Assembly: GCA_963731765.1 (NCBI GenBank) | Contig: CAVSWS010000004.1 | Coordinates: 26,670-90,669, forward strand | Direction of reading: 5' to 3' | Length of the DNA stretch: 64,000 nucleotides | Source of the DNA: an uncultured Chloroflexia bacterium | GTDB taxonomy: Bacteria > Chloroflexota > Dehalococcoidia > DSTF01 > WHTK01 | Part shown: in pieces, positions 12,099-56,512 of the stretch | Layout of the letters: every line of letters starts with the position of its first letter | How positions within the stretch are numbered: the first letter of the stretch is position 1 | The notes under the pieces: generated by a model | What the model was told of the DNA's origin: nothing | Databases searched by the model: none | Seen by the model: the letters and a program-made list of their open reading frames with translations, nothing else | Made by a program: the position numbers and the translations under genes

Positions 12099-12191
12099 CA
12101 TCCTGAGCTTGTCGAAGGATGTCGGCGTCGCGGCGAATAACTGACTCCTTGCGCTAATGCAGCCCTGACGTGCTTCGGCAAGCTCAGCATG
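12099..12191. repeat. CTGAG..TCGAAG-family palindromic repeat doublet
   Basis: CTGAGCTTGTCGAAG (12103-12117) and inverted CTTCGGCAAGCTCAG (12173-12187). Confidence 0.8.
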
Positions 12192-12234
12192 CCGTGGTCG
12201 GCATACCGTCGACCACTTCGCAGCGCTGCTGCCC

Positions 12235-12266
12235 CTCACCCGACCCTCTCCCCAGCGGGCCGAGGG
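12235..12266. repeat. CCCTCACCC/CCCTCTCC-type repeat
   Basis: CTCACCCGACCCTCTCCCCAGCGGGCCGAGGG resembles the reverse complement of 6768-6800. Confidence 0.65.
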
Positions 12267-12324
12267 GGAATGATCTGTGCTGCTGGGGATATTCTGCAGC
12301 GCTTGGCCGCAAGACCTTGCATTC

Positions 12325-13470
12325 TTAGCCCCACACCTTCCTTGCCACTTCGCTGACGAGGCGGAGCTTGGCGAGCTGCTGCTCCTCCGTGAGCGGGTTG
12401 CCGCCCTCGGCGGAGGCGAAGCCGCACTGGGGGCTGAGGGCCAGCCGCTCCAGCGGGATGATCTCGGCGGCGGCGTGGATGCCGGCTTCGACCTCGGCGG
12501 CGGATTCGAGGGTGCCTTCCTTGGTCGTGAGCAGGCCGAGGACGACCGTGGTATCCGGCAGGATGTGGCGCAGGGGGGCGAAGTCGCCGGCGCGGGGCGT
12601 GTCGTACTCCAGTAGCAGGGTGTCGATGTTGGGGATGTGCTGGAACAGGGGCGCCAGGGGCTCGTAGCCGCCGTTGGCGCTCCAGTAGCCGCCGGGCGAG
12701 TTGCCGCGACAGACGTGCATGGCGCAGGTGACGTTGTCCAGTCCCTCGAAGAGGTAGTTGTCGACCTCGGCGTCCTCAATGAGGTTCGCGGCCATGTCCT
12801 GGGCGTCCTCGGTCTCGTAGGCGGCGCGCACCTTTGGGTCGACGTAGAACTGGCCGTAGTTCGGGGCGTCGAGCTGGATGTAGTCGCAGCCCATCTCGAG
12901 CAGGGGCTTCACGACGTACTCGCGCAGCTTGTCGGCGATGTCGTAGAGGAAGTCGCGCGAGGTGGGGTAGGCGCCCGTGGAGTAGTTGCGGTCCCAGTAG
13001 ATGCGGTGGTAGCTGGGCGACGGGAAGCAGAACTTGGTGCGGACGGACGCGTGCTGCCTGAGGAAGTCGTAGTCCGAGGTGATCTCGTTGGAGAAGGCGA
13101 TCTTGTCGACGACGACGCCGCGGGGACGGGCACCGCGTTCGATAAAGTTGCCCTGGTTGTCCCACCAGAACCGGATCCAGCCCGGCCCTGCGTCCGTGAG
13201 GATCTTGAAGCCGCTGAACGCCGAGCGATGCAGGCCTTCCACGGTCGTAGGCGCGGTGGCGATCCAGGAGACGCGTCGTAGCTCGCCGTCCGTGATCACG
13301 TCGAGGCCTGCCGCCTCCTGCAGGGTGATGGCCTCCATGACGGCGCGGTTCTCCACCTCGCGGCGCTGGGTCTGGCTGACGAAGCCGGAGCGCACACCGG
13401 CGCGCATGTCCTTCACGTAGCCGGGACGCAGCAGGCTGCCGACAACTTCAGCGCGCGGTATCGATGCCAT
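12325..13470 (-). CDS. Cobalamin-independent methionine synthase II family protein (single-barrel MetE-like)
   Basis: RAEVVGSLLRP, ITDGELRR, YIQLDAP, MHVCRGN, LLEYD, LALSPQCGFAS (Zn ligands H, C, E, C). Confidence 0.92.
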   Translation of the reverse strand: MASIPRAEVVGSLLRPGYVKDMRAGVRSGFVSQTQRREVENRAVMEAITLQEAAGLDVITDGELRRVSWIATAPTTVEGLHRSAFSGFKILTDAGPGWIRFWWDNQGNFIERGARPRGVVVDKIAFSNEITSDYDFLRQHASVRTKFCFPSPSYHRIYWDRNYSTGAYPTSRDFLYDIADKLREYVVKPLLEMGCDYIQLDAPNYGQFYVDPKVRAAYETEDAQDMAANLIEDAEVDNYLFEGLDNVTCAMHVCRGNSPGGYWSANGGYEPLAPLFQHIPNIDTLLLEYDTPRAGDFAPLRHILPDTTVVLGLLTTKEGTLESAAEVEAGIHAAAEIIPLERLALSPQCGFASAEGGNPLTEEQQLAKLRLVSEVARKVWG

Positions 13471-13566
13471 GGCGGTGCTCCTTTTGAGGTTGGGTCGTGG
13501 TATCTGCGCATGCTACAGGAAGCGTCGCATGCGCGTCCGTCCGGGAACCTCCGATATGCTGCGGCT

Positions 13567-14091
13567 ATGAGTGACCAGAACGGCGCCGTGCTGATCGTCA
13601 TGGGCGGGCTGCCCGGCACCGGCAAGACGACGATCGCGCGAGCCCTGGCACGGCGCATCGGGGCCATGCACGTGCGCATCGATAGCATCGAGCAGGCGCT
13701 GCGAGACGCGGGTGGGACGTTGGCGGTGGGCGACGAGGGCTATCGGGTGGCGTATGCGGTGGCGGAGGACAACCTGCGCCTGGGGCATACCGTGGTCGCC
13801 GATTCCGTGAACCCGCTGGTGATTACGCGCGAGGCATGGCGATCGGTGGCGTTACGAAGCGAGGCGCGGTGTATCGAGGTGGAGGTCGTGTGCTCGGATG
13901 CGGCGGAGCACCGCCGGCGTGTCGAGTCGCGTCAGGGCGATATCGAGGGCTTGAAGCTGCCGTCCTGGCAGGACGTGATCGAGCGGGAGTACGAGGTGTG
14001 GGAGCAGCCGCATCTCGTGATTGATACGGCGGTGATGGGCGTGGAGGAGGCTGCCGGCGTTATCGAGGCGGCGCTGGAGGGCGGGGCGTAG
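13567..14091 (+). CDS. AAA_33-type P-loop kinase-like protein
   Basis: Walker A GLPGTGKTT; VVADSVNP; start 6 nt after TATGCT. Confidence 0.85.
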   Translation: MSDQNGAVLIVMGGLPGTGKTTIARALARRIGAMHVRIDSIEQALRDAGGTLAVGDEGYRVAYAVAEDNLRLGHTVVADSVNPLVITREAWRSVALRSEARCIEVEVVCSDAAEHRRRVESRQGDIEGLKLPSWQDVIEREYEVWEQPHLVIDTAVMGVEEAAGVIEAALEGGA

Positions 14092-14129
14092 GCGTCGGTG
14101 CGCTTCGAGGTGTGGTGAGGCGCCGGCCT

Positions 14130-14948
14130 CTACGGTGTGGTCTTGGCGGCAGAAGCGGGTCCCCGGCTGGCGACCAGGTAGATCGCGGAGTCGGTGCCGA
14201 CCTTGCTGCCGGCGGGCGGCGTCTGCTCCATGATGATGCCCTTCGCCACCGTGTCGCTGTAGACCTGGATGATGAAGTAGTTGACGTCGTTGTCATTGAG
14301 GAACGTCATGGCGCTCGCGAGGTCAGCGCCCACGAAGTCGGAGTACTGGCCCGGACGCGCCGGTGTGATGCTCTTGCCCTGAACCGGGCTATCGCCTCCG
14401 CTGGTGGGCGGCGCCTGCACCTGGCCGCCGGCCGTGGTCGAGACGCTCTGCGAGAGGGCGGCTTGCTGGGCGGTGAGGTCCTCTGGGCTGACAGCGGGAT
14501 TGCCGCTGCCGGTGCGCATGAGGAGGACGCCCGCTCCCAGGAGGAAGATGGCGACGAGGCCCGCGACGAGCCAGTTGACGTTGATCAGTTGCTCGGGCGG
14601 CCGGGATACCGTGGGCAGAGGTGTGATATCGACTGTGAGGTCGGCGCTCGGGAAGACGCGCAGGAGCTCGTCCGGGTTGAGGCCGAGGTAGCGTGCGTAG
14701 GTACGGAGGAAGCCTCGGGCGTACACAGGCGCCGGGAAGATCGAGAAGTCTTCGTTCTCGAGCGCCTGGAGGTAACGGCGAGAGACGTGCGTATCGCGCT
14801 CAACGTCTTCGAGCGTGATCGCCCGAGCGCGTCGTGCACGTGAAAGCGTATTGCCGAGCTCGCCCATCCGTGGAGTGGGGGCGGAAGCCGGGTACGGCCG
14901 CTCGACAGCAAGCTGCAACGTAGAGTTGTCTTCTGCGGTGGTCATCAA
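14130..14948 (-). CDS. RodZ-like HTH + TM + C-terminal PASTA-like domain protein
   Basis: LGNTLSRARRARAITLEDVERDTHVSRRYLQALENEDF...YARGFLRTYARYLGL; one TM; FVGADL...YSDTVAKGIIMEQTPPAGSKV...IYLVASRGP. Confidence 0.8.
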   Translation of the reverse strand: MMTTAEDNSTLQLAVERPYPASAPTPRMGELGNTLSRARRARAITLEDVERDTHVSRRYLQALENEDFSIFPAPVYARGFLRTYARYLGLNPDELLRVFPSADLTVDITPLPTVSRPPEQLINVNWLVAGLVAIFLLGAGVLLMRTGSGNPAVSPEDLTAQQAALSQSVSTTAGGQVQAPPTSGGDSPVQGKSITPARPGQYSDFVGADLASAMTFLNDNDVNYFIIQVYSDTVAKGIIMEQTPPAGSKVGTDSAIYLVASRGPASAAKTTP

Positions 14949-15142
14949 TATTTAATTACAGGGGATCGAAAGAAGAACCCCCGCCTAGCCGGAACCAGCC
15001 TACCACATGTCTATGCAAATCTCGGAATTCTTATGTCTTTTCGGGAGGGAGGCCAGACGTGACCCCATGCTAGAATGGCGCCGCTCTGCCTAATTTTCGT
15101 TATCAAATGGCCGCGGAGAGCGGCTGGATTCGGGGCGTCTGC

Positions 15143-15901
15143 ATGGATCTGGGACTCAAGGGCAAGGTCGCTATCGTCACCGGCGGCAGTCGCGGCATCG
15201 GCCGGTCGATTGCGCTGGGGTTGGCGGCAGAGGGCGCCAACGTGGCGATCTGCGCTCGTGGCGAGGAGAAGCTGCGCGAGACGGAGGCCGAGATCAAGGC
15301 GGCAGGCGTGAAGACGTTCGCGATGCCGCTGGACGTCACGGACGGCGCCGCCATCGACGACTTCGTGGCGAAGACGGCCGCGGAGCTGGGCGGCATCGAT
15401 ATCCTCGTGAACAACGCTGGGGGCTCACGCCCGGGCGATGAGGACGAGGTCTGGCAGGGCGTGTTGGACGTCAACCTGATGGCGGCGGTGCGAGCGAGCC
15501 GGGCCGTGATACCCCACCTTCGAGAGCGTGGCGGCGGTTCCATCGTGCACATCACCTCGATCTACGGCCGGGAGAGCGGCGGCGCGGCGACCTACAACGC
15601 CGCGAAATCGGCCATGACAGCGCACGCCAAGAGCCTGGGGCTGCAGCTGGCGCGCGAAGGCATCCGGGTCAACTCGATTGCGCCGGGCTCGATCCGGTTC
15701 CCCGGTGGCGGCTGGGACCGACGCGTGCAGGCCGACCCGGCAGCGATGGAGCGGTTTGTGAACGACAACATCGCGGCGGGGCGGTTCGGCACGCCGGAGG
15801 AGGTCGCGAACGCCGTCGTCTTCCTGTGCTCCCCGGCCGCGAGCTGGGTGGTGGCCGCGTCCCTGAACGTCGACGGCGGCCAGAGCCGGTCGAACATCTA
15901 A
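15143..15901 (+). CDS. Classical SDR oxidoreductase
   Basis: TGGSRGIG, ILVNNAG, YNAAK, GIRVNSIAPG. Confidence 0.95.
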   Translation: MDLGLKGKVAIVTGGSRGIGRSIALGLAAEGANVAICARGEEKLRETEAEIKAAGVKTFAMPLDVTDGAAIDDFVAKTAAELGGIDILVNNAGGSRPGDEDEVWQGVLDVNLMAAVRASRAVIPHLRERGGGSIVHITSIYGRESGGAATYNAAKSAMTAHAKSLGLQLAREGIRVNSIAPGSIRFPGGGWDRRVQADPAAMERFVNDNIAAGRFGTPEEVANAVVFLCSPAASWVVAASLNVDGGQSRSNI

Positions 15902-15938
15902 TGCAGCTACTTTCTCGAACCTCCTACGTACAGAAATT

Positions 15939-16081
15939 GTCATTGCGAGCCAGCGCGGCAGCGAGGCGCGGCAACCTGGGGAGCACTGCATCGACTGGGC
16001 AGCTGGCCTCCGTGAGAGCCCCATCCGTACAAGAATGGCTGAACGACTGCCACGGCCCGCTAACGCGTGCCTCGCAACGAC
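15939..16081. repeat. GTCATTGCGAG-family repeat, copy 2
   Basis: GTCATTGCGAG ... CTCGCAACGAC. Confidence 0.85.
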
Positions 16082-16114
16082 AGCAGGAGGGAGCGTCCCG
16101 CCGGGGATGAAGCT

Positions 16115-17065: not shown

Positions 17066-17114
17066 GACGCAGCTTTTCTGACTCCGTCCATCTGTGCCCG
17101 TTGACTCGCGTTCG

Positions 17115-17133
17115 CCCTGAGCCTGTCGAAGGG
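17115..17133. repeat. CTGAG..TCGAAG-family repeat (solo)
   Basis: CCCTGAGCCTGTCGAAGGG. Confidence 0.7.
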
Positions 17134-17286
17134 TGAGGGGCGATGAGGTTTCATGCGCCAGTCGATCACCTGAGACCAGCGCTCCCTCGCTCGCGCAGGA
17201 TGCCGCCACGGGCTGGTCGGTAGCCATCGCCAGGTTTGAGGCGCAGAATGGGCGGACAGCAGGGTGCGGCTCGGGCGAAAGGGGCG

Positions 17287-18613: not shown

Positions 18614-18950
18614 TTGGCCTGCGCCTTGAGCTACGCATCCCTGGCGGGCTGCTCCGCACGGGAAATTAAGTAGAGCATTGCGAGGGGACACCCCTCGCGC
18701 TCCCCGCGCATGGGACTCCGTCCCCCGCTACCCCCTCGTGATGCCAGGCATCGCTTCCCGGGCGATAGAGTGTCGCGGCACCAGCGCTGGCCCCGTATCT
18801 CTTATGCGCCTTCTCAAGTCTTGGCCTGCGCCTTGAGCGAGGCATCCCTGGGGCGGGCTGCTCGGCACGGGACATTAAGTAGAGCATTGCGAGCGGAGAC
18901 GCCTCGCGCTCCGCGCGCAGTGACTCTGCTCCCCGCTACCCCTCTTGAGA
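18614..18950. repeat. Tandem ~128-bp imperfect direct repeat containing GTAG-tagged REP-like hairpins
   Basis: 18614-18741 vs 18821-18950; each has TTAAGTAGAGCATTGCGAG...CTCGCGCTCC and a downstream CCGCTACCCC. Confidence 0.85.
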
Positions 18951-19720
18951 CAAGGGATCGATTGAGGGCGGAGGCAGGCTTCTGTCGCATAAACCCGCTC
19001 ATCCTGAGGCTCTCGAAGGATGCGACGTCGTACGGCGTTTCGAAGCGCGGCACATCTGCGCCCGGGTGCGTTCAGGTGCTCTCGATCGCCTGGAACAGCG
19101 GCTTCGACAGCAGCGTCTTCGGTCGTGTCGGGCGCGAGCTTGATCGTGCTGACGGCGATGCCGCTGGGGGCCCATTCGCGAGCGAGCGCGGCGAGGAGGG
19201 CTTCCGCACCGGCGCGGGCTGCGAGGAGCACCGGGGAGCTCGAATCGGGATCCAGGGCCGGGAGGAGGGCGATGATGCGGCCGCGGATGCCTTCGACCGG
19301 CTCGTTGTCCGTGAGCTCTTTGGAAGCGGCGCGGGCCGCGTAGAAGTAGGCGCCGAGGTTGTAGCCGATGGCCCGAGCCCACTCCGAGTCCGTGACGCGC
19401 TCGGAGGGCTTGTCGAGGCCTTCGCCGGCAGCGATCACGACGAGGTCGAGGCGGCCGAGCTGCTTGGCGATCTGGCGCACGGCTATCTGCACGCTCGAAC
19501 CGTTCCCGAGGTCGGCGATATCGGCGATGGCCTGGCGTCCTTCGGCCTCGATGGCGCGTCGCAAGGGTCGCAGCGCGAAGGCCTCTTCGGGATCGCCGTT
19601 GGTGCTGGTAACCGCGACGTCGGCCCCGGCCTGCGCGAGGGCGCGAGCAATCGCGGCGGCGTGGGGGTCGTTGGCGCCGAGGACGAGGGCCTTACGGCCG
19701 GTGAGATCGGGTGTGTCCAT
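18875..19720 (-). CDS. Atypical SDR-like protein lacking catalytic motifs; C-terminus reads into repeats
   Basis: LTGRKALVLGANDPH...LGRLDLVVIAAG...LAREWAPSGIAV; no TGxxxGIG, NNAG or YxxxK; start 6 nt after TAGACT. Confidence 0.75.
   Translation of the reverse strand: MDTPDLTGRKALVLGANDPHAAAIARALAQAGADVAVTSTNGDPEEAFALRPLRRAIEAEGRQAIADIADLGNGSSVQIAVRQIAKQLGRLDLVVIAAGEGLDKPSERVTDSEWARAIGYNLGAYFYAARAASKELTDNEPVEGIRGRIIALLPALDPDSSSPVLLAARAGAEALLAALAREWAPSGIAVSTIKLAPDTTEDAAVEAAVPGDREHLNAPGRRCAALRNAVRRRILREPQDERVYATEACLRPQSIPCLKRGSGEQSHCARSARRLRSQCST
18995..19024. repeat. CTGAG..TCGAAG-family repeat
   Basis: CCGCTCATCCTGAGGCTCTCGAAGGATGCG; near-identical to 47074-47103. Confidence 0.8.
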
Positions 19721-19772: not shown

Positions 19773-21041
19773 ATGAGAGTCGAACTGCCCTACGGTCGCG
19801 AGTTGCTGAGTGTCGAGGTGCCGGATAGCGCTAACGTGCTGCTGCCGCACCCTGTCGATGCGCTGAGGGACGCGCCGGCCGCGATGCTGGCGGCGCTGCG
19901 TACACCGACAGCGGGGCCGCCGCTGCGAGAGCGGGTGCGCGCCGGCCAGAAGGTCGCCGTCGTCGTCAGCGACATCACGCGGCCCGTGCCGAACGAGCTG
20001 ATCCTGCGACCGCTGCTGGCGGAGCTCGAGGCGGTGGGCGTGCCGGTGACCGACGTGACGATCGTCAACGGCACGGGGCTACATCGGGTGAACAACGAGG
20101 CGGAGCTGCGCGAGATGCTGGGGCCGGAGATCGCGTCGCGATACCGCATCGTGCAGCACGTAGCGCGCGACCGGTCGACGCTGACGGAGGTCGGGCGCAG
20201 CAAGGGCGTACCGGCGGAGATGTGCACTGCGTACGTCGAAGCGGACGTGCGCATCGTCACCGGCTTCGTGGAGCCACACCTGTTTGCGGGCTATTCCGGC
20301 GGGCCAAAGGGGATCATGCCGGGTGTGGCGGGCGCGGAGATCGTCATGAGCAACCACGGCGCGCCGAACCTGGCGAACATGCAGGCGCGCTGGGGTGTTA
20401 CCGAGGGCAACCCTGTGTGGGAGGAGATGCGCGACATCGCCGCGATGTGTCCGCCCCACTTCCTGGTCAACGTGACGCTGGACAGCGAACGCAACGTGAC
20501 GGGCGTGTTCTCCGGCGACCTGATGCCGGCGCACGCCGCGGCCGTGGCGCAGGCCCGCAAGCAGTACCTGGTCTCGATCCCGAAGCCGTACGACGTGGTG
20601 GTGACGACGAACATGGGCTATCCGGCCGACACGTCGCTTTACCAGTCCGTGAAGGGCATGTCGGTGGCGGCGGAGGGCGTGCGCGAGGGTGGCGCCATTC
20701 TGCTCGTGGCGGGCTGTGAAGAGGGCATCGGGTCTGACGACTACGCCGAGGGCCTGCGCGCCGCCGAATCGCCGGCGGCGCTGCTGGAGCGCATCCTCCA
20801 CACGGAGCATCCGCGGCACGACCAGTGGCAGATCCAGTGCCAGGCCATGGTGCAGGCGAAGGCACGCGTGCTGGTGAAGTCACTCCTGAGCGATTCGGAC
20901 GCTCGCGCCGCGCATGTTGAGCCGGTGGAAGACGCGTCGGCCGCGGTACGGGCGCTCGTCGAGGCGGCGCAGCGAGAGGGTCGAGAAGGCTCCGTGCTGG
21001 TGCTGCCGGTCGGGCAGCTGACGGTGCCGGTGGTGGAGTAG
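19773..21041 (+). CDS. larA: Nickel-pincer-dependent LarA-family 2-hydroxyacid racemase/epimerase
   Basis: SDITRP, GTGLHR, VEPHLFAGYSGGPK, MSNH, YQSVKG. Confidence 0.9.
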   Translation: MRVELPYGRELLSVEVPDSANVLLPHPVDALRDAPAAMLAALRTPTAGPPLRERVRAGQKVAVVVSDITRPVPNELILRPLLAELEAVGVPVTDVTIVNGTGLHRVNNEAELREMLGPEIASRYRIVQHVARDRSTLTEVGRSKGVPAEMCTAYVEADVRIVTGFVEPHLFAGYSGGPKGIMPGVAGAEIVMSNHGAPNLANMQARWGVTEGNPVWEEMRDIAAMCPPHFLVNVTLDSERNVTGVFSGDLMPAHAAAVAQARKQYLVSIPKPYDVVVTTNMGYPADTSLYQSVKGMSVAAEGVREGGAILLVAGCEEGIGSDDYAEGLRAAESPAALLERILHTEHPRHDQWQIQCQAMVQAKARVLVKSLLSDSDARAAHVEPVEDASAAVRALVEAAQREGREGSVLVLPVGQLTVPVVE

Positions 21042-21115
21042 GGGCCGAGAGCGCTGCTCCAGTGTCGAGACTCGTTGGTATCGGCAGGGGCATTGGATGC
21101 TCGGTGTGGGCCTGA

Positions 21116-21140
21116 CGTGCTTCGACAGGCTCAGCATGCC
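21116..21140. repeat. CTGAG..TCGAAG-family repeat (inverted)
   Basis: CGTGCTTCGACAGGCTCAGCATGCC vs CGTGCTTCGGCAAGCTCAGCATGCC at 12169. Confidence 0.8.
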
Positions 21141-21176
21141 TTTACGGAACGCCTTGGTCTGCCGCGAGATGCAGTG

Positions 21177-21333
21177 GTCATTGCGAGCAATAGCGAAGCA
21201 ATCTCACGCCGGGGTACTGGGAGACATGCGCTGGTCTGGACTCTCGACGGGCTGCAGTGAGCGGCGTTTCGGTTCGAGGGCGGATGGGGTGTGGTTGCAC
21301 GATGTGGGATTGCCGCGCTTCGCTCGCAATGAC
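21177..21333. repeat. GTCATTGCGAG-family repeat, copy 4
   Basis: GTCATTGCGAGCAATAGCGAAGCAATC ... GATTGCCGCGCTTCGCTCGCAATGAC. Confidence 0.85.
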
Positions 21334-21345
21334 CATTTCGAACGT

Positions 21346-21377
21346 AGAAGGCCCGTACTGAGCAGTACGGGCCTTCT
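21346..21377. terminator. Strong hairpin between convergent genes (likely terminator)
   Basis: Perfect 14-bp IR AGAAGGCCCGTACT-GAGC-AGTACGGGCCTTCT. Confidence 0.8.
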
Positions 21378-21399
21378 TGATGTGCGTTGCTGAACGTTG

Positions 21400-21999
21400 C
21401 TAGTCCGGGTCCTGGGGGGCCTGTGCTGGGGACGAGGCTGCTTCGGCTTTGAGGCGCTCCAGGAGCCAGTCGTCGAGGGCGTCGGCGTATTCGCGGCGGT
21501 TCTCGATGTGGTTGCGACGGATGATCTCGTTGAGGTCGCGCTGCAGGATGGAGCGACGGCCGTAGGAGTCGTCCGCGGGGTTGTCGCCGAGCTCGGTGAC
21601 TTCGAGGACGTAGAGCGCCTGGAAGGTCTCGGTGCCTGCCGCGAACTCCTTGTTGAAGGAGGAGGCGGTCCAGCGGTAGTGGCCCAGGTGCTTCGAGGTC
21701 GCATGCAGGATGCCCACCTGCTCATTGGCGATGCGCTTGATCGCATCGAGGACGTTCTCGCCCTCGTGTACGTCGCCCTCCGGCAGGTGGCCGGCGCCGT
21801 CCTTCCAGGCGACAACGGGCCGCTCGCCCCGGTACGGGATCAGGGTGATGTGCGTGATCTTTGCGTCGGCAGGGAGGCTGCTGGTTTCCCACCAGGCCCG
21901 CCAGTCGTCGCCGATCTTCTTTTCTGTGTATGTAGAGCGTTCCGACTCTCGAGGACGGAAAAACGTCTTCGGGAGTGCGCCGCCGCCGCCGTCTTCTAT
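21400..21999 (-). CDS. NUDIX-like protein (199 aa), apparent ATA start
   Basis: Frame is open from TAA at ~22021 to 21400; AGGAGG lies 6 nt upstream of ATA 21999; degenerate Nudix box LPEGDVHEGENVLDAIKRIANEQVG. Confidence 0.65.
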   Translation of the reverse strand: MEDGGGGALPKTFFRPRESERSTYTEKKIGDDWRAWWETSSLPADAKITHITLIPYRGERPVVAWKDGAGHLPEGDVHEGENVLDAIKRIANEQVGILHATSKHLGHYRWTASSFNKEFAAGTETFQALYVLEVTELGDNPADDSYGRRSILQRDLNEIIRRNHIENRREYADALDDWLLERLKAEAASSPAQAPQDPD

Positions 22000-31563: not shown

Positions 31564-35952
<4,389 letters not shown>

Positions 35953-36030
35953 TGGATCCTCCCTTGTAAACCCGATAAGCCCCATGCTGCCCCGGAACCG
36001 ATCGTCCGGGGCAGTCGGTAGTAGTTGTTG

Positions 36031-39000
36031 TTAGAGAACGCCTCGTTCGCTCATGACGTCCTCGTTCTCGAACCCGCTGAGGTTGATGCCGAGGCGAGGC
36101 GTGTCGTCGTCGAGACCTTCGTCCGCAAACAGGACCTCCTCTTCGTCCTCGTTGAGCACTTCGACCGAGAGGCCGAGGCTCTGCAGCTCCTTCACGAGTA
36201 CCTTGAACGATTCCGGAATGCCGGGTTCGAGTACGTCGTCGCCCTTGACGATGGCTTCGTAGGTCTTGACGCGACCGACAACGTCGTCGCTCTTGACCGT
36301 GAGCAGCTCTTGCAGCGTGTGAGCGGCGCCGTAGGCTTCCAGAGCCCAGACCTCCATCTCACCGAAGCGCTGGCCACCCATCTGTGCCTTACCACCCAGC
36401 GGCTGCTGCGTGATGAGGGAGTACGGGCCCGTGCTGCGGGCGTGAATCTTCTCTTCCACCAGGTGGACGAGCTTCAGCATGTAAATCTGACCGATGGTCA
36501 CGGCCTGGTCGAACGGCTCACCGGTGCGGCCATCGAAGATGATCTGGCGGCCGTAGACGGGGGCGGCGAGGCGTCGCTTCATCGACACTTCGTCGGCCAG
36601 CTTCTCCAGCTCGCCAAGGTTCTTGGCGTCCTTGACCTTCTCGCCGATGCTCTCGAGCCAGATGGCGAGGCAGACACGCTTGCCTTCCTCGGGGTGGGAC
36701 TCATCGAACACCTTGTTGAAGTCGTAGCCGCGTTCCTTGAGCCAGTCCTCCATGACCGGTACGTCCAGGTTTTCGCCCCAGTTCGGTGCGTTGACGCTGA
36801 TGCCGGCGTGAATCGCGTCGGCCTCCTGCGCCATCCAGGCCCGGCCGAGAGCGCCTTCGATGCTGATGTCGTCGGCGCCGTCGAACACTGGTGTGACGGC
36901 TCGGAAGCCGAGTACACCGGCGGCCCAACCGAGGTGGGTCTCCAGCACCTGACCAACGTTCATACGGCTAGGAACGCCGATGGGGTTGAGGATGATGTCG
37001 ACCGGCGTGCCGTCCGAGAGGTACGGCATGTCTTCGATGGGCAGGATGCGGGCGATGACGCCCTTGTTGCCGTGACGGCCCGCCATCTTGTCGCCTTCCG
37101 CCAGCTTGCGCTTCTGGGCGATGGAGACTCGCACCAGCTCGTTGACGCCGGCGGGCAACTCGTCGTGGTCTTCGCGGCGGAAGACACGCACGTCGATTAC
37201 CTTGCCGTGCTGGCCGTGCGGCACTCGCAGCGAGGTGTCCTTCACTTCGCGGGCCTTCTCACCGAAGATTGCGCGAAGCAGCTTCTCCTCTGCCGTGAGC
37301 TCCGTTTCACCCTTCGGGGTGATCTTGCCGACGAGGATGTCGCCGGCCTGGACCTCGGCGCCGATGCGGATGATGCCCTCTTCGTCGAGGTCCTTCAGCG
37401 ACTCGTCGCCGACGTTCGGGATGTCGCGCGTGATCTCCTCCGGACCCAGCTTGGTGTCGCGGGCTTCGATCTCGTGCTTCTCGATGTGAATCGAAGAGAA
37501 CTTGTCCTGACGGACGAGCTCCTCAGACAGGATGATGGCGTCCTCGAAGTTGTAGCCCTCCCAGCTCATGAAGGCACACACCACGCTCTGGCCAAGGGCC
37601 AGCTCGCCGTGCTCCGTCGAAGAGCTGTCGATGAGGGTGCTGCCGGCGCTGACGCGGTCGCCCTTGGTCACCAGCGGTCGCTGGTTGAGGCAGGTTGCCG
37701 CGTTGGAACGCAGGAACTTCATCACCGGGTAGGACTCCACGCGTCCGTCGTCGTAGCGCACGTCGACGGAGCGGGCGGTAGAGCTGATCACTTCACCGGG
37801 GCCGTCCGCGATGATCACCTGACCGGAGTCGACAGCGACCTGGCGCTCCGTACCGGTGCCGACCAGCGGGCGCTCCGGGCGCAGCAGAGGCACTGCCTGG
37901 CGCTGCATGTTGGAGCCCATGAGGGCGCGAGGCGCGTCGTCGTGCTCCAGGAACGGGATGAGCGACGTCGCGGTGCTGAGGATCTGCTTCGGCGAGACGT
38001 CCATGAAGTCGATGTTCTCGGGCTCCGTGAACTCGAACTTGTCGCCGTCCCGGACCTCGATCTCGTCGCCGACGAAGTGACCGCGCTCGTCAACGACGGC
38101 GTTGGCCTGGGCAACGATGTAGTTGTCCTCTTCGTCAGCGGAGAGGTAGATGATGTCAAACGAAGCCCACGGCACCACCTGAACATGGCGGGCGCCGTAA
38201 GGCTGCAGGGTCTTCGCCAGCTCCGGCGTGATTTCCTCACCGGCCTTGACGATGACCTTGCCATCGACCTCGAAGTCGTCCCGCACGATGCGGCCCACGA
38301 GGTCCTCTGAGTCTGCCGTCAGCTCCTTGATTACGCGGCGGTAGGGCGTCTCGATGAAGCCGTACTCGTTAATCACGGCGAAGGACGCCAGCGAGACGAT
38401 CAGGCCGATGTTCGGGCCTTCAGGCGTCTCGATGGGGCAGATACGGCCGTAGTGGCTGTGGTGAACGTCTCGCACGTCGAAGCCTGCGTGGTCGCGGGAA
38501 AGACCGCCCGGGCCCAGGGCTGAGAGCTTGCGCTTGTGCGTGAGCTCCGCCAGCGGGTTGGTCTGGTCCATGAACTGCGAGAGCTGCGAACCGCCGAAGA
38601 ACTCCTTCATGGCGGCGACGACGGGCCGGATGTTGATCAGGGCGCTCGGCGTTGCCTGGTCCGGGTCCGTAATCGTCATGCGCTCGCGTACCACGCGCTC
38701 CATGCGCAGGAGGCCGATGCGGAACTGGTTCTGGATCAGCTCGCCGACGGCACGCACGCGGCGGTTGCCGAGGTGGTCGATCTCGTCCGTCTCACCGATG
38801 CCGTTGTTGAGGCGTACGAGCTCCTCCACGATTGCCTTGATGTCGGCGATCGTGAGGGTGCGGTCGCTCAGGTCCGTGTCCTGCTTGAGGCGGCGGTTGA
38901 TCTTGTAGCGGCCGACCTTCAGGAGGTCGTAGCGGCGCGGGTTGAAGAACAGCGAGTTGACCAGCGTGCGGGCGTTCTCCAGCGTTGGCGGGTCGCCCGG

Positions 39001-39798
39001 GCGCATGCGCTTGTAGAAGTCTTCCAGAGCGCGGAGCTTGTTGCCGGTCTTGACCTCCGGCGTCTCCTTGTCGAGGGTCGTGGCGATGTAGTGGTGGTCC
39101 GGGTTGACGTCGACGTCCTGGTACCACTCGAGCATGCGCTCGGCGGTGCCCAGCTCCTGGTCCTTGACGCCTTCGACGGTGTCGATGGCGCGGAGCAGGG
39201 TGGTCACCGGGATCTTGCGCTTGCGGTCGACCTTGACCGAGATCACGTCACGGTTGGAAGTCTCGAACTCCAGCCAGGCGCCGCGGTTCGGGATCACCTT
39301 CGCGAAGGCGAGGCCACGACCGGTGGTCGGGTCCTTCTCCAGCGTGAAGTAGACGCCGGGGGAGCGCACGAGCTGGGACACAACCACGCGCTCGGCGCCG
39401 TTGATGATGAAGGTGCCGGTGGGGGTCATGAGCGGGAAGTCGCCCATGAACAGCTCCTGCTCCTTGACCTCGCCGGTCTCCTTGACGATGAGCTCCACCT
39501 TGACACGCAGCGGCGCGGCGTACGTGGCGTCACGTTCGCGGCACTCTCGTTCGCCGTACTTGGGCTCTCCGAAGGAGTAATCGCCGAAGCGAAGCTCCAT
39601 CTTGGAACCGGTGAAGTCCTGGATGGGCGAAATCTCGTCCAGTAGCTCTCGCAGGCCTTCGCGCAGGAACCAATCGTAGGAGTCCAGCTGGACCTTGATC
39701 AGGTTCGGCATCTCCATGATTTGCGGGATCTTCGAATACCATTTCTCGGAGGCGGGAATGTAATCGCCGAACCGCACAACGTCTCGCGCAAGCGTCAT
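36031..39798 (-). CDS. rpoB: RNA polymerase beta subunit
   Basis: [43 protein letters not shown]. Confidence 0.99.
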
Positions 39799-46379: not shown

Positions 46380-47027
46380 TCAGGTTGCCCAGTCTAGGCC
46401 ATCGCCGTCGTGCAGCTCCTGCCAGCAGCGGGTGATGGTGCTGCGGGCGATGCCGTAGCCGAAGCCGCGGCTGGCCAGAAAGCTGCCGAGCCGGCGCTCG
46501 AAGGTCTGCTTGTCGGCGTCTCGCAGGGCTCGGAGACGGCGCTGGGCGGCCTCGTAGGCGGACTCGGCGTCCGAGTGCTCTTCCAGGGCCGTTTCGACGT
46601 GCTGCTTGTCGATGCCCTTGCGGGAAAGCTCGAAGGCCAGGGCGCGCTTCGAGCGGGGCGATGCCTGACGGGCTTCCACGTAGTAGCGCGCGAAGCTGGC
46701 ATCGTTCAGGTAGCCGAGCTCCTTCATGCGCCGAACAGCGTGCTCGGTGGCCTCGGATGTGAAGCCGCGGCGCCCCTTGAGGCGGTCGCGCAGGTCGTGT
46801 TCGCTGCGGGGCCCCATGGCCAGCAGCTTGAGCGCCGCCTCGACCGCACCGAGTCGCTGGTCCTCCGCCTCCAGTTCCCTCCTGCGTTTCGGCTCCACCT
46901 CAAGCCCAACCTCGAGGCGGGCGAGAGTGATGACATCGAGGCGCAGGCTGAAGGCGTACTCACCGTCCAGGAAGACGTTGGCGCGAGGGCGCCTCGGTTG
47001 CTTCTCGAGGGCGGTGATCGTGGGCAT
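46380..47027 (-). CDS. recX: Regulatory protein RecX
   Basis: ITALEKQ...ANVFLDGEYAF; RSEHDLRDRL; GYLNDASFA; LASRGFGY; directly downstream of recA. Confidence 0.92.
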   Translation of the reverse strand: MPTITALEKQPRRPRANVFLDGEYAFSLRLDVITLARLEVGLEVEPKRRRELEAEDQRLGAVEAALKLLAMGPRSEHDLRDRLKGRRGFTSEATEHAVRRMKELGYLNDASFARYYVEARQASPRSKRALAFELSRKGIDKQHVETALEEHSDAESAYEAAQRRLRALRDADKQTFERRLGSFLASRGFGYGIARSTITRCWQELHDGDGLDWAT

Positions 47028-47073
47028 CAGGAGGCTGGCTCCGTTGCAAACGAGTCGAACGCGCCCTTAACCA

Positions 47074-47103
47074 CCGCTCGTCCTGAGGCTCTCGAAGGAC
47101 GAG
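47074..47103. repeat. CTGAG..TCGAAG-family repeat between recA and recX
   Basis: CCGCTCGTCCTGAGGCTCTCGAAGGACGAG. Confidence 0.8.
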
Positions 47104-47159
47104 GCTCGACCTTGCTCTGGAGTGACTCGACCAGACGTCATGCGAGAGATCGGGGTCCT

Positions 47160-48239
47160 TTACTCGTCTTCCGGCTCTTCGTCGTCCTCTTCTTCGACCA
47201 CCTTGACCTTGGGCTTTGAGCCGGGGGTGATGGCGGCGGCCTTGGCGGCGGCACGAATCTCCAGCTCGATCTGGGTGGCCAGCTCCGGGTTCTCGATGAG
47301 GAAGTCGCGAGCCTTTTCGCGGCCCTGGCCCAGGCGCTGATCGCCGTAGCTGTAGAAGGCGCCCAGCTTCTTGAGGATTTCGTACTCGACACCGAGGTCG
47401 AGGATGTCGCCTTCGCGGCTGATGCCGGTGGTCTTGCCGGTGAAGAGGAGGTCGAACTCGGCCTGGCGGAAGGGCGCGGCGACCTTGTTCTTGACGACGC
47501 GGGTGCGTACGCGGTTGCCGACCACCTGCTGGCCCTGCTTGAGGGATTCAATGCGGCGGATGTCGATGCGTACGGAGCTGTAGAACTTGAGCGCGCGGCC
47601 GCCGGGGGTGGTCTCAGGGTTGCCGAAGACGACGCCGATCTTCTCGCGTAGCTGGTTGACGAAGATCACGGCCGTGCGCGACTTGGAGATGGAGCCGGTG
47701 AGCTTGCGCAGGGCCTGCGACATCAGGCGCGCCTGCAGGCCGGGCAGTGAGTCGCCCATGTCGCCTTCGATTTCAGCGCGCGGCACCAGGGCGGCGACGC
47801 TGTCGACCACGACGACGTCCACGGCGTTGGAGCGCACGAGGGCTTCGGCGATCTCGAGGGCCTGCTCGCCCGTGTCGGGCTGAGAGACCAGCATGTCGTC
47901 AACGTTGACGCCGATCGCGCGCGCGAATGCCGGGTCCAGGGCGTGCTCGACGTCGATGTAAGCGGCGAGCCCGCCGAGCTTCTGAGCTTCGGCGATGATG
48001 TGCTGACAGAGGGTCGACTTGCCGGAGGACTCGGGGCCGAAGAGCTCGGTGATGCGGCCGCGTGGCACGCCGCCGATACCGAGAGCGAGGTCCAGGGAGA
48101 GCGAGCCGGTAGGGATGGCCTCGATTTCGAGGTTCTTCTGGTCGCCCATGCGCATGATGGCGCCGCGGCCAAACTGCTTTTCGATTTGCCCGATGGCGAG
48201 GTCGACTGCGCGAGTGCGGTCTTCAGTCATTGTGGTCAT
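47160..48239 (-). CDS. recA: Recombinase RecA
   Basis: [48 protein letters not shown]. Confidence 0.99.
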
Positions 48240-51240: not shown

Positions 51241-51302
51241 AAGCGCAGTTTAGCACCAGGCTCAATGCCCGATTCTGCGCGATGCCCTTTATGATGCGGA
51301 CG

Positions 51303-53103: not shown

Positions 53104-53503
53104 CGTGGGGCATGTTGACGATGAGCAGGGCCAGGAAGAACACGGACACCACGATCGTGAGGACGGCGCCTTCGACCTTCAGGTCGTTCGAGGCGACGTA
53201 GTAGAGGCTGGCGATGATGGCGGCAGACTGCTCGACGACGCCGACCCAGAGCACGCCGGGATGACGTATGGGGTTACGGACGAGGCCGTAGAAGTAGACA
53301 GCCACGGGAATGAGGCCTGCGCCGCTAAATGAGGCTTTGGCCCCCATGAAGCCCCCGATTTCGGTGCCATCGATCTTCATGAGGACGCTGCCGAAGGAGA
53401 AGGCGGCGAGTACGGTGATCAGATCCCAGAGCAGCATGAGCACCAGCAGAGTCTGAAGTCGGCGCAGGTGCGTGGACGACGGGCGGCCTTCGATCGCGCT
53501 CAT
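53087..53503 (-). CDS. Four-TM hypothetical membrane protein
   Basis: Four hydrophobic segments; coupled to the next gene. Confidence 0.7.
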   Translation of the reverse strand: MSAIEGRPSSTHLRRLQTLLVLMLLWDLITVLAAFSFGSVLMKIDGTEIGGFMGAKASFSGAGLIPVAVYFYGLVRNPIRHPGVLWVGVVEQSAAIIASLYYVASNDLKVEGAVLTIVVSVFFLALLIVNMPHGGSRA

Positions 53504-53700
53504 GTGTGCCCGATCTTACGGGTAGCGGGGGCGTTTATCACGTCGAGGACCGTCGATTTGCGTAGATTAGGCCGTTCGGACCGTCGACTTGGTCAAGGGC
53601 TCTGAAGCGCGGGCCGCAGCTGCACCTCGAAGCGCCGCTAGCGCAGCCGGGGTTGCTTCGCCTCCGCGTTCGCGGATGCTCTCGTAACAAGTAGCGGCGC

Positions 53701-54075
53701 CTACTGCACTTTCGTGCCGTGAAGGCCTTCTTCATCGATGCCGAAGTGGTGGGCGATCTCGTGGTGGAGGGTGTTCTTGACCTGCTCTGCCAGCTCATCG
53801 TCATCCGGGAAGTCACGCAGGAGGGGACCCCAGTAGATCGTGATGCGGTCGGGGAGGACGCGGTCGTAGCCGGATCCGCGCTCGGTGAGTGGGACGCCTT
53901 CGTAGAGTCCGTAAAGGGTGGCGTTGCCGAGATGGAGGCGACGGCGGGCGCGAGGAAGAATGGCGCGCTCGACGCGGATGACGACGTTGTCCAGGGCTTT
54001 GGCGTACTGCTCCGGTAACGCTTCGAGGGCCTCTGCGATCAGGCGATAGACGAGAACGGCGCGAGGCCGGGGCAT
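53701..54075 (-). CDS. Zincin-like metallopeptidase family protein
   Basis: LYGLYEGVPLTER, PDRITIY, LHHEIAHHFG (HExxH). Confidence 0.9.
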   Translation of the reverse strand: MPRPRAVLVYRLIAEALEALPEQYAKALDNVVIRVERAILPRARRRLHLGNATLYGLYEGVPLTERGSGYDRVLPDRITIYWGPLLRDFPDDDELAEQVKNTLHHEIAHHFGIDEEGLHGTKVQ

Positions 54076-54085
54076 GCAGTCGCGA

Positions 54086-54526
54086 TCAGGTGGCGGTGCG
54101 CTGCCAGACGGTCTGGAAGCCTTCGCCGACGATGGCGTTGCGGATCTCTCGTTTTTCGAGCTTCAGGAGCTCGTTAATCACCTCGTTGCATTGGCGGGTG
54201 CTGTCTTCGTGACCGGATGCGGTGATGCGTTGCACGATGGCGCTCCATACGCCCGTGCTCTGCAGCGTGGTGACGTACTTCGGCCACATGATCGCCGTCA
54301 TCTTCTCCGGCAAGGGGAAGCGCGGGCGCAGTCGCTTCAGGCTGCGGAAGCTCTCTTCCGAGGAGCCGGCGCGGTTGACGACCTTGACCATGGGGCCTTC
54401 GTACTCGCTGAAGCGGTTATCGATGAGCAAGCGCTTATCGAGGAGGCCAAATCGTATACGCACCACTTCTGCGGTTTCGACAGTATGGAGAATTTCGTCC
54501 AGGTTCAGTATGTAATCGTTATCCAT
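54086..54526 (-). CDS. Hypothetical protein (146 aa)
   Basis: Clean ORF directly upstream of the zincin gene; family not recognised. Confidence 0.75.
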   Translation of the reverse strand: MDNDYILNLDEILHTVETAEVVRIRFGLLDKRLLIDNRFSEYEGPMVKVVNRAGSSEESFRSLKRLRPRFPLPEKMTAIMWPKYVTTLQSTGVWSAIVQRITASGHEDSTRQCNEVINELLKLEKREIRNAIVGEGFQTVWQRTAT

Positions 54527-54739
54527 GGGGGTGACTCACTCATGTTATCAGGCCGGCGCCTGGTGTCCAAAGGCAAAGAGGCGCGGGAAATCGAGAATCT
54601 CGCAGAATCGTTGCACTTCGTTACAGGGTGATTGCCCGCTGACTGAGAGGCGGAGAGATGGCTCGACAACGTCCCGCCATTTCGGAGGCAACAGCCAGGA
54701 GCATCGTCGCGGAGAACATCCTGGACTACTAACGTGAGG

Positions 54740-55537
54740 CTAGCCTGGCACCCGCGTACGCCATGGCGTTCGTGCCCGAGTCCAGCGCCGGTAGCTGACC
54801 GTCGCCGTCAGTGCTGTCAGCGCAACGATTAGTCCCAGCACGCCATCGAGGAACCAGTGGTTGCCCGTGACGACCGTCGCGGTCGCCATCATTACGGGCA
54901 TGGCAAACGCGAGCCAGCGCCAACGCGTCTTCGGCAGGGCCAGGGTTAGCGAAACGGCAAGCAAGAACGTCCAGCCGATGTGCATGCTGGGCAGCGCGGC
55001 GTAGTGGTTCACGCCGGGGATATCGCTGTAGGTGGGCGTCAGGCCGGAGTTCAACGTATCGACAAAGCCGACCCCGAGTAGTCTCGGCGGCGCCGTGGGT
55101 AGGGCGAGGAAGAAGCACACGGCGATTGCACCGGAGGTCAGGAAGGCCGTGCGCGCCAGGGCATAGACCTCCGGGTGCTTCCAGAACAACCACGCCGCGA
55201 TGGGGATGAGCATGGGGAAGAAGGCGTAGAAGTAGAACACATTGAAAACGTCCAGCAGGGCCGTGTGGGGCAGGATCCAGCGCTGGACCGAAAGCTCGCC
55301 GTAGATGCCGAGGCTCTTCTCAATGTTAACGATGTGTCGCGCGTTGCCCATCGCGTCTGAGACGCGTCCGCTGGCGAGGCCCCGCACCTGAGAGTAGACA
55401 AGGTAACCCAGCCCGACGAGAAGAAGCTCGCGGAGCAATCGCTTTGGGATCGAGTGCTCTGCGGTTCGTGTGGCGGGAAGCGTTAGGGATGAGCCGTCGA
55501 CACGGACATCCGCTGCTTCGACGAGTTCCTGAGCCAA
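54740..55537 (-). CDS. PAP2-family (Aur1/Ipt1-like) membrane phosphotransferase
   Basis: PTAPPR, YAALPSMHIGW, TGNHWFLD; start tentatively TTG 55537, 7 nt after TATAAT. Confidence 0.85.
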   Translation of the reverse strand: MAQELVEAADVRVDGSSLTLPATRTAEHSIPKRLLRELLLVGLGYLVYSQVRGLASGRVSDAMGNARHIVNIEKSLGIYGELSVQRWILPHTALLDVFNVFYFYAFFPMLIPIAAWLFWKHPEVYALARTAFLTSGAIAVCFFLALPTAPPRLLGVGFVDTLNSGLTPTYSDIPGVNHYAALPSMHIGWTFLLAVSLTLALPKTRWRWLAFAMPVMMATATVVTGNHWFLDGVLGLIVALTALTATVSYRRWTRARTPWRTRVPG

Positions 55538-55574
55538 GACTCTAATTATAGCCCCTACCGCTATGCGCGCCTCA

Positions 55575-56327
55575 TCAGCGGAACATATCGAGCTCGGCCG
55601 CGCGCACAATCTCCTTCGCCGAACCATCGCCGCGCGGGATGGCATAGCCCCGGATCAGGGCGACTGGCACACGGTTCATCTTGCCCGTGACGAGCTCGGC
55701 GGAAGATGCAAGCTCATCGGCGATGCAGATCCACGTTGCCTTGAGCTCGCGGCCGTGCGTGTCCACCTGTCCGACGTAGTCGAGGATGGGCAGCATGCCC
55801 GCGACGCCGATAGCGACTTCCGTGTAGCCGGCGCGCCACGGCCGCCCAAAGGTGTCCGAGATGATCACGGCCACGTCGGCGCCGGTGTGCTGCTTCACGG
55901 AGGCGCGAATGCGGGCAGCGGAGGCGTCGGGGTCGATGGGCAGGAGCATGAGCTTGCCGTCCGGCACGTTGGAGGCATCGACGCCGGCGTTGGCGCAGAC
56001 GAGGCCGTGCCGGGTCTCGCAGATCATGACGCCGCGGTCCATGCGCACGAAGCGCTTCGTCTCGCGCAGGACGACCTCGACGTGCCGGGGGTCCTTGTCG
56101 CCCGCCTGGGCCAGCTCGATCGCGAGGGGTGATGGCTCGATGGTGTTGAGGTCGACGCCACGGTCCTCCGACTTCGAGACGGCCTTCTGGGTGACGACGA
56201 GCACGTCGTTGTCCTGCAGCGTGACGTCCTGCGCCGCGCAGGCGTCCGCGATGAAGCGCCCGAGGTCATCGCCGGGGTTGATCTCGGGGATGCCTTCGAT
56301 GCCGAGGATGGTCACTGGCTGGGCCAT
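55575..56327 (-). CDS. cofE: Coenzyme F420-0:L-glutamate ligase
   Basis: GIPEINPGDDL, VVTQKAVSKSE, ETRHGLVCANAGVDASN, IISDTFGRPWR, IADELAS. Confidence 0.95.
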   Translation of the reverse strand: MAQPVTILGIEGIPEINPGDDLGRFIADACAAQDVTLQDNDVLVVTQKAVSKSEDRGVDLNTIEPSPLAIELAQAGDKDPRHVEVVLRETKRFVRMDRGVMICETRHGLVCANAGVDASNVPDGKLMLLPIDPDASAARIRASVKQHTGADVAVIISDTFGRPWRAGYTEVAIGVAGMLPILDYVGQVDTHGRELKATWICIADELASSAELVTGKMNRVPVALIRGYAIPRGDGSAKEIVRAAELDMFR

Positions 56328-56381
56328 TGGGGCTGCCTTTCCGTATCCCGGCCAGAGGCCAGGATTGATGTCGCATCGATG

Positions 56382-56476
56382 TTTGTGCTCGTAAACCCGG
56401 CGTTCGAGGGCATTCGTGACGTCGGTGTAAAGCACGGTCGAGAGTTGTTGGAGAGAATGTACACGTAGTAGGGCAT
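56382..56476 (-). pseudogene. Truncated, frameshifted GIY-YIG (YhbQ-like) nuclease remnant
   Basis: MPYYVYILSNNSR / VLYTDVTNALERRVYEHK in two frames; the catalytic-motif Gly is replaced by Asp; homology stops after EHK. Confidence 0.75.
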
Positions 56477-56488
56477 CACGAACCCTGC

Positions 56489-56512
56489 AGATTCTTCATT
56501 CCTCAGACTGAC
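56489..56512 (-). repeat. GTCA..CTGAG..GAAG-type repeat directly upstream of the GIY-YIG remnant
   Basis: Minus strand GTCAGTCTGAGGAATGAAGAATCT ends 12 nt before the ATG. Confidence 0.6.

Follow-up and report, generated by a model that had tools for sequence, protein, structure and literature searches.

The closest described relatives of the system considered here are the Ssn nucleases, GIY-YIG proteins of about 95 amino acids (aa) flanked by hairpins called NTS or SRM (Chenal et al. 2025, Nat Commun 16:2388; PMC11893778). SsnA of Neisseria meningitidis (94 aa, cd10448) binds its NTS (CGTCATTCCCGCG..GCGGGAATC) solely as single-stranded DNA (ssDNA) and cuts it a few nucleotides upstream of the hairpin; the enzyme reads the nucleotides upstream of the palindrome together with the C after it, which in Neisseria matter most for cleavage and binding, and residues Y6, Y17 and E64 have been mutated in this protein (PMC11893778). 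Binding and cleavage of ssDNA hairpins have been shown only for the Neisseria and Wolbachia homologs. At least one SRM lies near 71% of the homologs, SRMs occur on both sides of 42%, and the NTS-ssnA-NTS arrangement has been likened, in the discussion of the same paper, to insertion sequences (ISs) and to the repetitive extragenic palindromes (REPs) with their REP-associated tyrosine transposase, RAYT (PMC11893778). Here we describe a decayed arrangement of this kind, i.e. a dead ssn gene with its hairpin and a set of related hairpin repeats, in a 64,000-nucleotide stretch of an uncultured Chloroflexia bacterium (GenBank assembly GCA_963731765.1, contig CAVSWS010000004.1, positions 26,670 to 90,669; hereafter the window).

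A preliminary description of the window had proposed that its CTGAG..GAAG palindromes are spread by a small GIY-YIG nuclease, in the role that RAYT plays for REPs, and had regarded the mechanism as not yet established. The association, the biochemistry and the analogy with REP/RAYT and ISs were already in print (PMC11893778). The system is a fossil, a decayed member of the published Ssn/SRM kind and not a new one, and since the general pairing of small GIY-YIG Ssn nucleases with hairpin repeats has been published, the window opens no new field. The spreading of hairpins by the nuclease is itself a hypothesis. The features shared with the published system are a single-domain GIY-YIG protein of about 95 aa with conserved Y6, Y17 and E64, a gene placed between two inverted hairpins, each of which has a GTCA head and a stem of 5-8 bp and is followed by a C, many additional intergenic hairpins, and occurrence in many phyla. 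The window differs in that its gene is dead and partly deleted, half of its hairpins are devoid of the GTCA head and the 3' C, and its stems (ATTGC, ATTCT, ATCCT, with GAG..GAA loops) are unlike the Neisseria ATTCCCGC type. New in this study are an orthologous frameshifted cassette, the exact ends of its intact relatives, miniature inverted pairs of canonical hairpins (class A, below), and hairpins without the canonical head around a divergent nuclease gene (locus L102). They provide a dated example of cassette decay, in which the insertion is shared and the inactivating lesions are independent in two relatives, as well as sequence-level evidence for the cassette as a discrete unit, which bears on whether Ssn cassettes are mobile elements.

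We estimate at roughly three in four the probability that the window holds the remains of an Ssn/SRM system, composed of a dead cassette and twelve other hairpins, solo or paired, of the same superfamily (Table 1). The remnant of the ssn gene, read from 56476 on the minus strand, begins with MPYYVYILSNNSR, undergoes a -1 frameshift near codon 13 and continues as TVLYTDVTNALERRVYEHKHR, where homology ends; the codons of Y6 and Y17 are kept but split by the frameshift, and E64 is deleted. Because merely 34 codons are left, the remnant falls just below the cut-off of the Pfam profile PF01541 (E = 2e-4, 22.0 bits; cut-off 22.6). A tblastn search with 120 family members detected it with E = 5.7e-9 and found no second ssn copy in the window; weak tblastn matches to ssn at 18779-18862 and 47017-47106 (E = 0.03-0.09) proved on inspection to be no more than noise. 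A protein search with a 50-aa fragment of the remnant returned a single match (E-values scaled to 5.8 billion sequences). The GTCA-headed hairpin that had been placed 12 nt upstream of a frameshifted GIY-YIG gene is indeed there; one of its stem positions is mutated (ATTCT to AGTCT), and its covariance-model score is 13.8 bits.

The same spacer, between npdG and cofE, contains in a relative (L092) the full unit, i.e. GTCATTCTGAGGAACGAAGAATCT, the same 12-nt spacer, an ssn gene of about 100 codons, and GATCCTTCGTATCTCAGAATGAC. This gene carries Y17H, a second substitution that turns the Y of RRVYEH into C, and a frameshift past codon 37; ssn is dead both there and in the window. Compared with L092, the window has lost approximately 270 bp, comprising codon 35 to the end of the gene, the right-hand hairpin and a little of the flank. 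As a full cassette occupies the same site in L092 and the lesions differ, the insertion is ancestral and the decay independent in the two lineages. With the L092 read-through (about 100 codons) 829 proteins were retrieved at E <= 1e-8, of which the 120 listed are mostly 92-100 aa long with PF01541; among the matches listed, the closest intact proteins are 66-69% identical to the cassette read-through. Intact cassettes of about 350 bp, with perfect inverted ends of 28-29 bp (GTCATTCTGAGGRACGAAGAATCTGCAGG), were identified at the loci of these proteins, L219 and L220, and share the left end of the L092 unit. Both flanking hairpins are thus present in L092, L219 and L220, and the window has kept the left one, its right one being deleted. 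In a three-way alignment of these loci homology is bounded exactly by TGTCA...TGACA, while the flanks and neighbouring genes are unrelated. Such exact bounds in unrelated contexts can be read as the signature of a discrete, once-mobile unit, and the full hairpin-ssn-hairpin unit of L092, together with the intact cassettes elsewhere, supports the earlier suggestion that the window carries the fossil of an autonomous element. The locus encoding the protein nearest to the window fragment (P0001; L091, 2960-3270) contains an internally deleted ssn with both GTCATTGCGAG-type ends kept, a state halfway from the complete cassette to a mini-pair lacking the gene. Locus L094 turned out to be paralogous and non-syntenic.

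The GTCA head of the cassette's left hairpin is abutted and overlapped by an imperfect 11-12 bp inverted repeat at 56508-56544 (CTGACAAAAGGGG..CCCTTTGTCAG). Since this repeat includes GGGATTGCC, which in class A forms the inner portion of the right arm, it may be the remnant of an adjacent hairpin.

Homologs of the cassette protein occur across bacteria as single-domain GIY-YIG proteins of about 95 aa, and Y6, Y17 and E64, the residues mutated in Neisseria SsnA, are invariant columns of their alignment. Eighty genomic loci were fetched, and hairpin statistics were computed on 68 GIY-YIG loci from many phyla. In the typical arrangement a GTCA-headed hairpin lies 10-40 nt upstream of the gene, on the gene strand, and its inverted counterpart is located at or just past the stop codon, which the downstream hairpin often supplies (protein tails ...SLRSE or ...SLRSG directly before the stop). 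A GTC-headed hairpin is present within 120 nt upstream, on the gene strand, at 44 of the 68 loci, within 120 nt downstream, on the opposite strand, at 44, and on both sides at 31; the median length of the hairpin-ssn-hairpin unit is 416 bp. Hairpin density reaches 5.2-5.3 per kb in the ssn flanks versus about 0.95 per kb farther off, a 5-6 fold enrichment, so the expectation that intact GIY-YIG copies would be surrounded by the repeats was not refuted. Moreover, many genomes have several ssn copies, with hairpin clusters around intact genes. An Rfam search of 20 ssn loci matched only an unrelated c-di-GMP riboswitch.

Six of the hairpins in the window, which had escaped the preliminary description, are of the canonical GTCATTGCGAG type (class A) and make up three inverted mini-pairs devoid of genes. 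The sequence GTCATTGCGAG occurs five times in the window against 0.10 expected, and the sixth class A arm is GTCGTTGCGAG. All six copies, like the hairpin of the remnant, have a GTC(A/T) head, and a C directly follows the palindrome in class A as well as in the hairpin of the remnant (GCAATC, GAATC). The three GTCATTGCGAG pairs would be gene-less miniature derivatives of the ssn cassette. A fourth inverted mini-pair, 12099-12191 (93 bp), consists of hairpins of the other kind found in the window (class B). Stem mismatches are seen in several of the window hairpins.

Class B comprises the repeats on which the preliminary description was built; all listed copies were found, each a few bases or less from where it had been placed. 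Their supposed linkage to the GIY-YIG gene stood for the GTCA-headed hairpin at the remnant and did not for the six listed copies, which lie 9-44 kb away from it. The core CTGAG-N5-CGAAG is common to all six. Searched with fixed spacing (CTGAGNNNNNCGAAG), it has 6 matches in the window (G+C content 65%) versus 0.32 +/- 0.60 expected, a number reached in none of 100 shuffles; the loose pattern CTGAG..GAAG with a gap of 2-30 nt has 22 matches versus 17.9 +/- 4.2 in shuffled sequence, which is not above chance. Each copy has a stem of 4-8 bp and an 11-nt loop of the form GAG-SYTSYC-GA, with the variants GGCATCCTGAG.., GCTCATCCTGAG.. and GTTCGCCCTGAG.., and no sequence is shared beyond the hairpin of about 25 nt. 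The compensatory stem change reported earlier is real: CATCCT/AGGATG at 19000 corresponds to CGTCCT/AGGACG at 47079 (A-T to G-C). In a set of ten copies, made up of the window's six together with two orthologous ones and both ends of L102, 91% of stem cells are paired versus 35-48% with the partner slid, and three of the six stem pairs show changes on both sides. All class B sites are intergenic or at gene 3' ends, three of them between convergent genes. As no T-run follows the hairpins in the sequence read 3' of the copies, they are not intrinsic terminators, and that interpretation was rejected.

Table 1. Coordinates of the ssn remnant and of the hairpins identified in the window
Feature	Position	Strand	Sequence and remarks
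ssn pseudogene remnant	56380..56476	-	codons 1-34 of an Ssn-type GIY-YIG nuclease (~95 aa)
Left-end hairpin (SRM) of dead cassette	56489..56512	-	GTCAGTCTGAGGAATGAAGAATCT; GTCA head; ends exactly 12 nt before ATG
Class A inverted mini-pair	10047..10154	both	108 bp; GTCATTGCGAG...GCAATCTC, 38-nt spacer, GGGATTGCC...CTCGCAATGAC
Class A inverted mini-pair	15939..16081	both	143 bp; GTCATTGCGAGCC...GCAACC and ...CCTCGCAACGAC; both arms slightly decayed
Class A inverted mini-pair	21177..21333	both	157 bp; GTCATTGCGAGCAATAGCGAAGCAATCTC and GGGATTGCCGCGCTTCGCTCGCAATGAC
Class B hairpin	12099..12121	+	CATCCT-GAGCTTGTCGA-AGGATG; left arm of 93-bp inverted pair; head GGC, not GTC
Class B hairpin	12169..12191 (inner 12171-12189)	-	CATGCT-GAGCTTGCCGA-AGCACG; right arm of 93-bp inverted pair
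Class B hairpin	17115..17133	+	CCCT-GAGCCTGTCGA-AGGG; GTTCG head; between two + strand genes
Class B hairpin	19000..19022	+	CATCCT-GAGGCTCTCGA-AGGATG; GCTC head; in tail of short-chain dehydrogenase ORF (open reading frame)
Class B hairpin	21118..21136	-	TGCT-GAGCCTGTCGA-AGCA; GGCA head
Class B hairpin	47077..47103	+	CTCGTCCT-GAGGCTCTCGA-AGGACGAG; recA-recX spacer

The relationship of class B to the Ssn hairpins was addressed with a covariance model (R1) whose training set consisted exclusively of 23 hairpins at ssn loci in other genomes. The nine best matches of R1 in the window comprise all six class B copies, two class A copies and the hairpin of the remnant, with nothing else above them; four have E-values of 0.025 or less and five lie between 0.18 and 0.89. 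The best match is the 12099 hairpin (27.7 bits, E = 2.6e-5). Furthermore, two ssn loci from other phyla, L048 and L055, contain the 15-nt class B core CTGAGCCTGTCGAAG preceded by a GTCA head (GTCATGCTGAGCCTGTCGAAGCATCT, GTCAGTCTGAGCCTGTCGAAGACTGAG). A metagenome scan for this core yielded 147 copies in 120 loci, whose heads are GTC(A/G) in 17 copies, GTTC(A/G) in 27, SCTC(A/G) in 20, CCTG (tandem type) in 23 and other in 60; the CGTTCGCC head of the 17115 copy is common among them. At one of these loci, L102, a divergent GIY-YIG gene, which matches the Ssn profile with an hhalign probability of 98.5%, lies between inverted headless CATCCTGAGCCYGTCGAAGGACGCACG hairpins that have the same A.C mismatch as the window copies 12171 and 21118. 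The published degenerate SRM pattern, as transcribed, has no match in the window, which says little, since it was found within 200 nt of ssn at only 4 of the 68 loci. From their resemblance to the Ssn hairpins and from the single locus L102, the class B copies most probably belong to the same hairpin superfamily, having either drifted or been matched to a different nuclease specificity.

At the metagenome loci L117, L149 and L163 the core CTGAGCCTGTCGAAG is also found in head-to-tail arrays with periods of 24 or 48 nt (GGGCCTGCC CTGAGCCTGTCGAAG ...), arranged otherwise than in the hairpin copies.

Several observations weigh against the assignment of all these hairpins to a mobile Ssn/SRM system. 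The heads of the six class B copies are GGC, GCTC or GTTCG, none being GTC(A/T), and the C directly 3' of the palindrome is absent from all six (G in five copies, T in 17115); by the published mutagenesis, a canonical Ssn should therefore neither cut nor bind class B well (PMC11893778). Only one of the 120 metagenome core loci (L102) has an ssn-like gene, and most of the metagenome copies have non-GTC heads. Within ssn loci, the identity of left and right hairpins is 0.68 versus 0.60 between loci, which tempers a strict interpretation of them as terminal inverted repeats. An intact ssn, P0034, has the same neighbours in all ten places shown (24 contigs read), which offers no sign that it has moved. 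Neither the cassettes nor the mini-pairs show a target-site duplication, and comparison with the relatives revealed neither a clean insertion nor an empty-site polymorphism of any hairpin.

Five of the six class B copies are, moreover, present at orthologous sites in relatives. The 12099 and 12169 arms are found in L093 and L218, the 17115 hairpin is identical and the 19000 hairpin conserved in L093, and the 47077 hairpin is conserved in the orthologous recA-recX spacer of L092. The class A pairs 10047-10154 and 15939-16081 are likewise conserved, in L218 and L093, respectively. The 21118 hairpin and the pair 21177-21333 are present in L217 and absent from L093, where about 530 bp of unrelated sequence (10497-11029) replaces the whole window spacer 21041-21400, from the lactate racemase gene to the next gene; because the entire spacer is replaced, this is not a clean insertion of either element. 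The 12099/12171 hairpins differ from those of L093 by 13-17% substitutions, a divergence no lower than that of the surrounding spacer, so purifying selection is not visible. Given these shared positions, the class B copies are old, with no sign in these comparisons of recent movement or of purifying selection. The replacement sequence of L093 may hold a small ORF.

Class B might instead be a separate REP-like family with a role in the host, such as 3' mRNA stabilisation, attenuation or protein binding, whose nearness to a dead ssn is coincidental. The location of every copy in an intergenic region or at a gene 3' end, with three sites between convergent genes, would suit such a role, as would the conserved positions, the missing GTCA head and 3' C, and a metagenomic core that mostly has non-GTC heads and lacks ssn at 119 of 120 loci. 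We nevertheless consider this explanation unlikely: a model built from ssn-flanking hairpins alone ranks class B first in the window, the identical core is preceded by GTCA in the ssn loci L048 and L055, and at L102 the headless shape forms the inverted ends of a GIY-YIG gene. The lack of T-runs removes intrinsic termination from the possible host roles, and the 12099/12171 pair has diverged from L093 no less than its spacer. It is rather doubtful, though somewhat easier to entertain, that an intact Ssn, encoded by another part of the genome, still acts on the hairpins in trans in ssDNA restriction or modulation of recombination, the dead cassette being just a redundant copy. A function of this type has been published for N. 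meningitidis (PMC11893778), the view is limited to 64 kb of a 124-kb contig, and in many genomes several ssn copies and hairpin clusters around intact genes coexist. Opposed to it are the stem mismatches in several hairpins, the absence of a second ssn from about 120 kb of this lineage, and the absence of any intact protein above 69% identity to the read-through from a collection that includes this assembly.

The hairpins also bear a general resemblance to classical REPs, which are mobilised by a RAYT of the IS200/IS605 type: both are short intergenic palindromes, often in inverted pairs like those of bacterial interspersed mosaic elements (BIMEs), both flank an autonomous gene, and in both cases a small nuclease recognises hairpins in ssDNA. 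The enzyme here is a GIY-YIG protein and not an HUH tyrosine transposase. With E. coli RayT as the tblastn query, no BLAST-detectable relative was found in the window or in L092-L094, and the one match among the 120 metagenome loci lies 2 kb from a hairpin; direct reading revealed no GTAG-type REP head, and the gene bracketed by these hairpins encodes a GIY-YIG protein. A RAYT-driven origin, for which we see hardly any room, was therefore rejected.

Under the reading that we prefer, that of a decayed Ssn/SRM system, an ancestral cassette of about 350 bp, laid out as hairpin, 12-nt spacer, 95-aa GIY-YIG ssn gene and inverted hairpin, would have inserted between the F420 genes npdG and cofE. It would then have died, by a frameshift and Y17H in L092 and by a frameshift and the deletion of approximately 270 bp in the window. 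The cassette would be, or have been, a discrete mobile unit bounded by TGTCA...TGACA, and the six CTGAG-N5-CGAAG copies would be old, drifting relatives whose canonical recognition head has been lost. Ssn cleaves 5' of its hairpin, on whichever strand bears the GTCA orientation (PMC11893778). Because the ends are inverted, each strand would be cut once, immediately outside the cassette, at times when it is single-stranded, as in replication, repair or uptake, and such cuts could release the cassette or mark it for copying by host repair. To our knowledge, GIY-YIG nucleases do not form a covalent intermediate or join strands, so peel-and-paste transposition in the style of IS200/IS605 cannot be assumed.

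The cassette resembles ISs and miniature inverted-repeat transposable elements (MITEs) in being a discrete unit of 350-420 bp that has inverted ends (in L219 and L220 without mismatch over 28-29 bp), resides in unrelated contexts and is accompanied by gene-less inverted mini-pairs of 93-157 bp. It differs from them in that no target-site duplication, no known transposase fold and no insertion polymorphism among close relatives were seen. With free-standing GIY-YIG homing endonucleases of the I-TevI type it shares a GIY-YIG catalytic domain on a selfish-looking gene. Homing endonucleases have a separate DNA-binding domain and cut a double-stranded target, whereas Ssn is a bare domain acting on single-stranded hairpins. 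Taken further, and only tentatively, the cassette could be a true transposable element of a new enzymatic class, with a bare GIY-YIG ssDNA nuclease as its sole protein and the inverted pairs as its MITEs, and the headless CTGAG..CGAAG superfamily (CCGTTCG.., CCGCTCAT.. heads) could be serviced by divergent GIY-YIG clades, as in L102, outside the published SRM definition. The headless hairpins, which are very common in soil metagenomes, provide a lead in this respect, as they may share the system via divergent nucleases; if so, the published motif greatly undercounts such elements.

The window also contains several other features. Its genes include rpoB (1255 aa) and rpoC (1473 aa) at 31564-39798, recA and recX at 46380-48239, with a hairpin between the two, and cofE and npdG (F420) at 55575-57291. 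The exceptional length of RpoB and RpoC, taken together with the F420 genes, may point to Chloroflexota or a comparable soil lineage. No tRNA was found in the window, and an Rfam scan of it at gathering thresholds gave no family match. In a search of sequencing runs, matches came from soil, wetland, sediment and salt-marsh metagenomes, with word shares that were low throughout.

Of the 281 residues encoded by the short-chain dehydrogenase ORF at 18875-19720 (minus strand), only 1-223 align with the family (Pfam profile 10-203), and the tail of the ORF reads through the 19000 hairpin (..RRILREPQDE..); the true C-terminus looks as if it had been replaced or frameshifted. Partly overlapping this ORF, a unit of about 100 nt is doubled at 18614-18919 with a spacing of 207-209 nt, in blocks of 31 and 68 nt with 94% and 91% identity. 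The unit carries the hairpin GCGAGGGGACACCCCTCGC, preceded by AGCATTGCGAGG, and is present in a single copy in the relative L093; the repeat is therefore a 206-bp insertion or duplication in the window.

Near the class A pair 21177-21333, a hairpin with a perfect 13-bp stem, GAAGGCCCGTACTG AGC AGTACGGGCCTTC, followed by TTG, is located at 21349-21378; it has the appearance of a terminator serving the convergent genes and does not belong to the repeat family. Finally, a second repeat family, CCCTCACCC..CCCTCTCCCC..GGGAGAGGG, often adjoins Ssn-type hairpins. It was observed in the window at 12226-12272 and 56553-56572, in L092 at 6650-6690 and in L217 at about 4800-4850, where it lies inside an insertion of approximately 220 bp that the window does not have.

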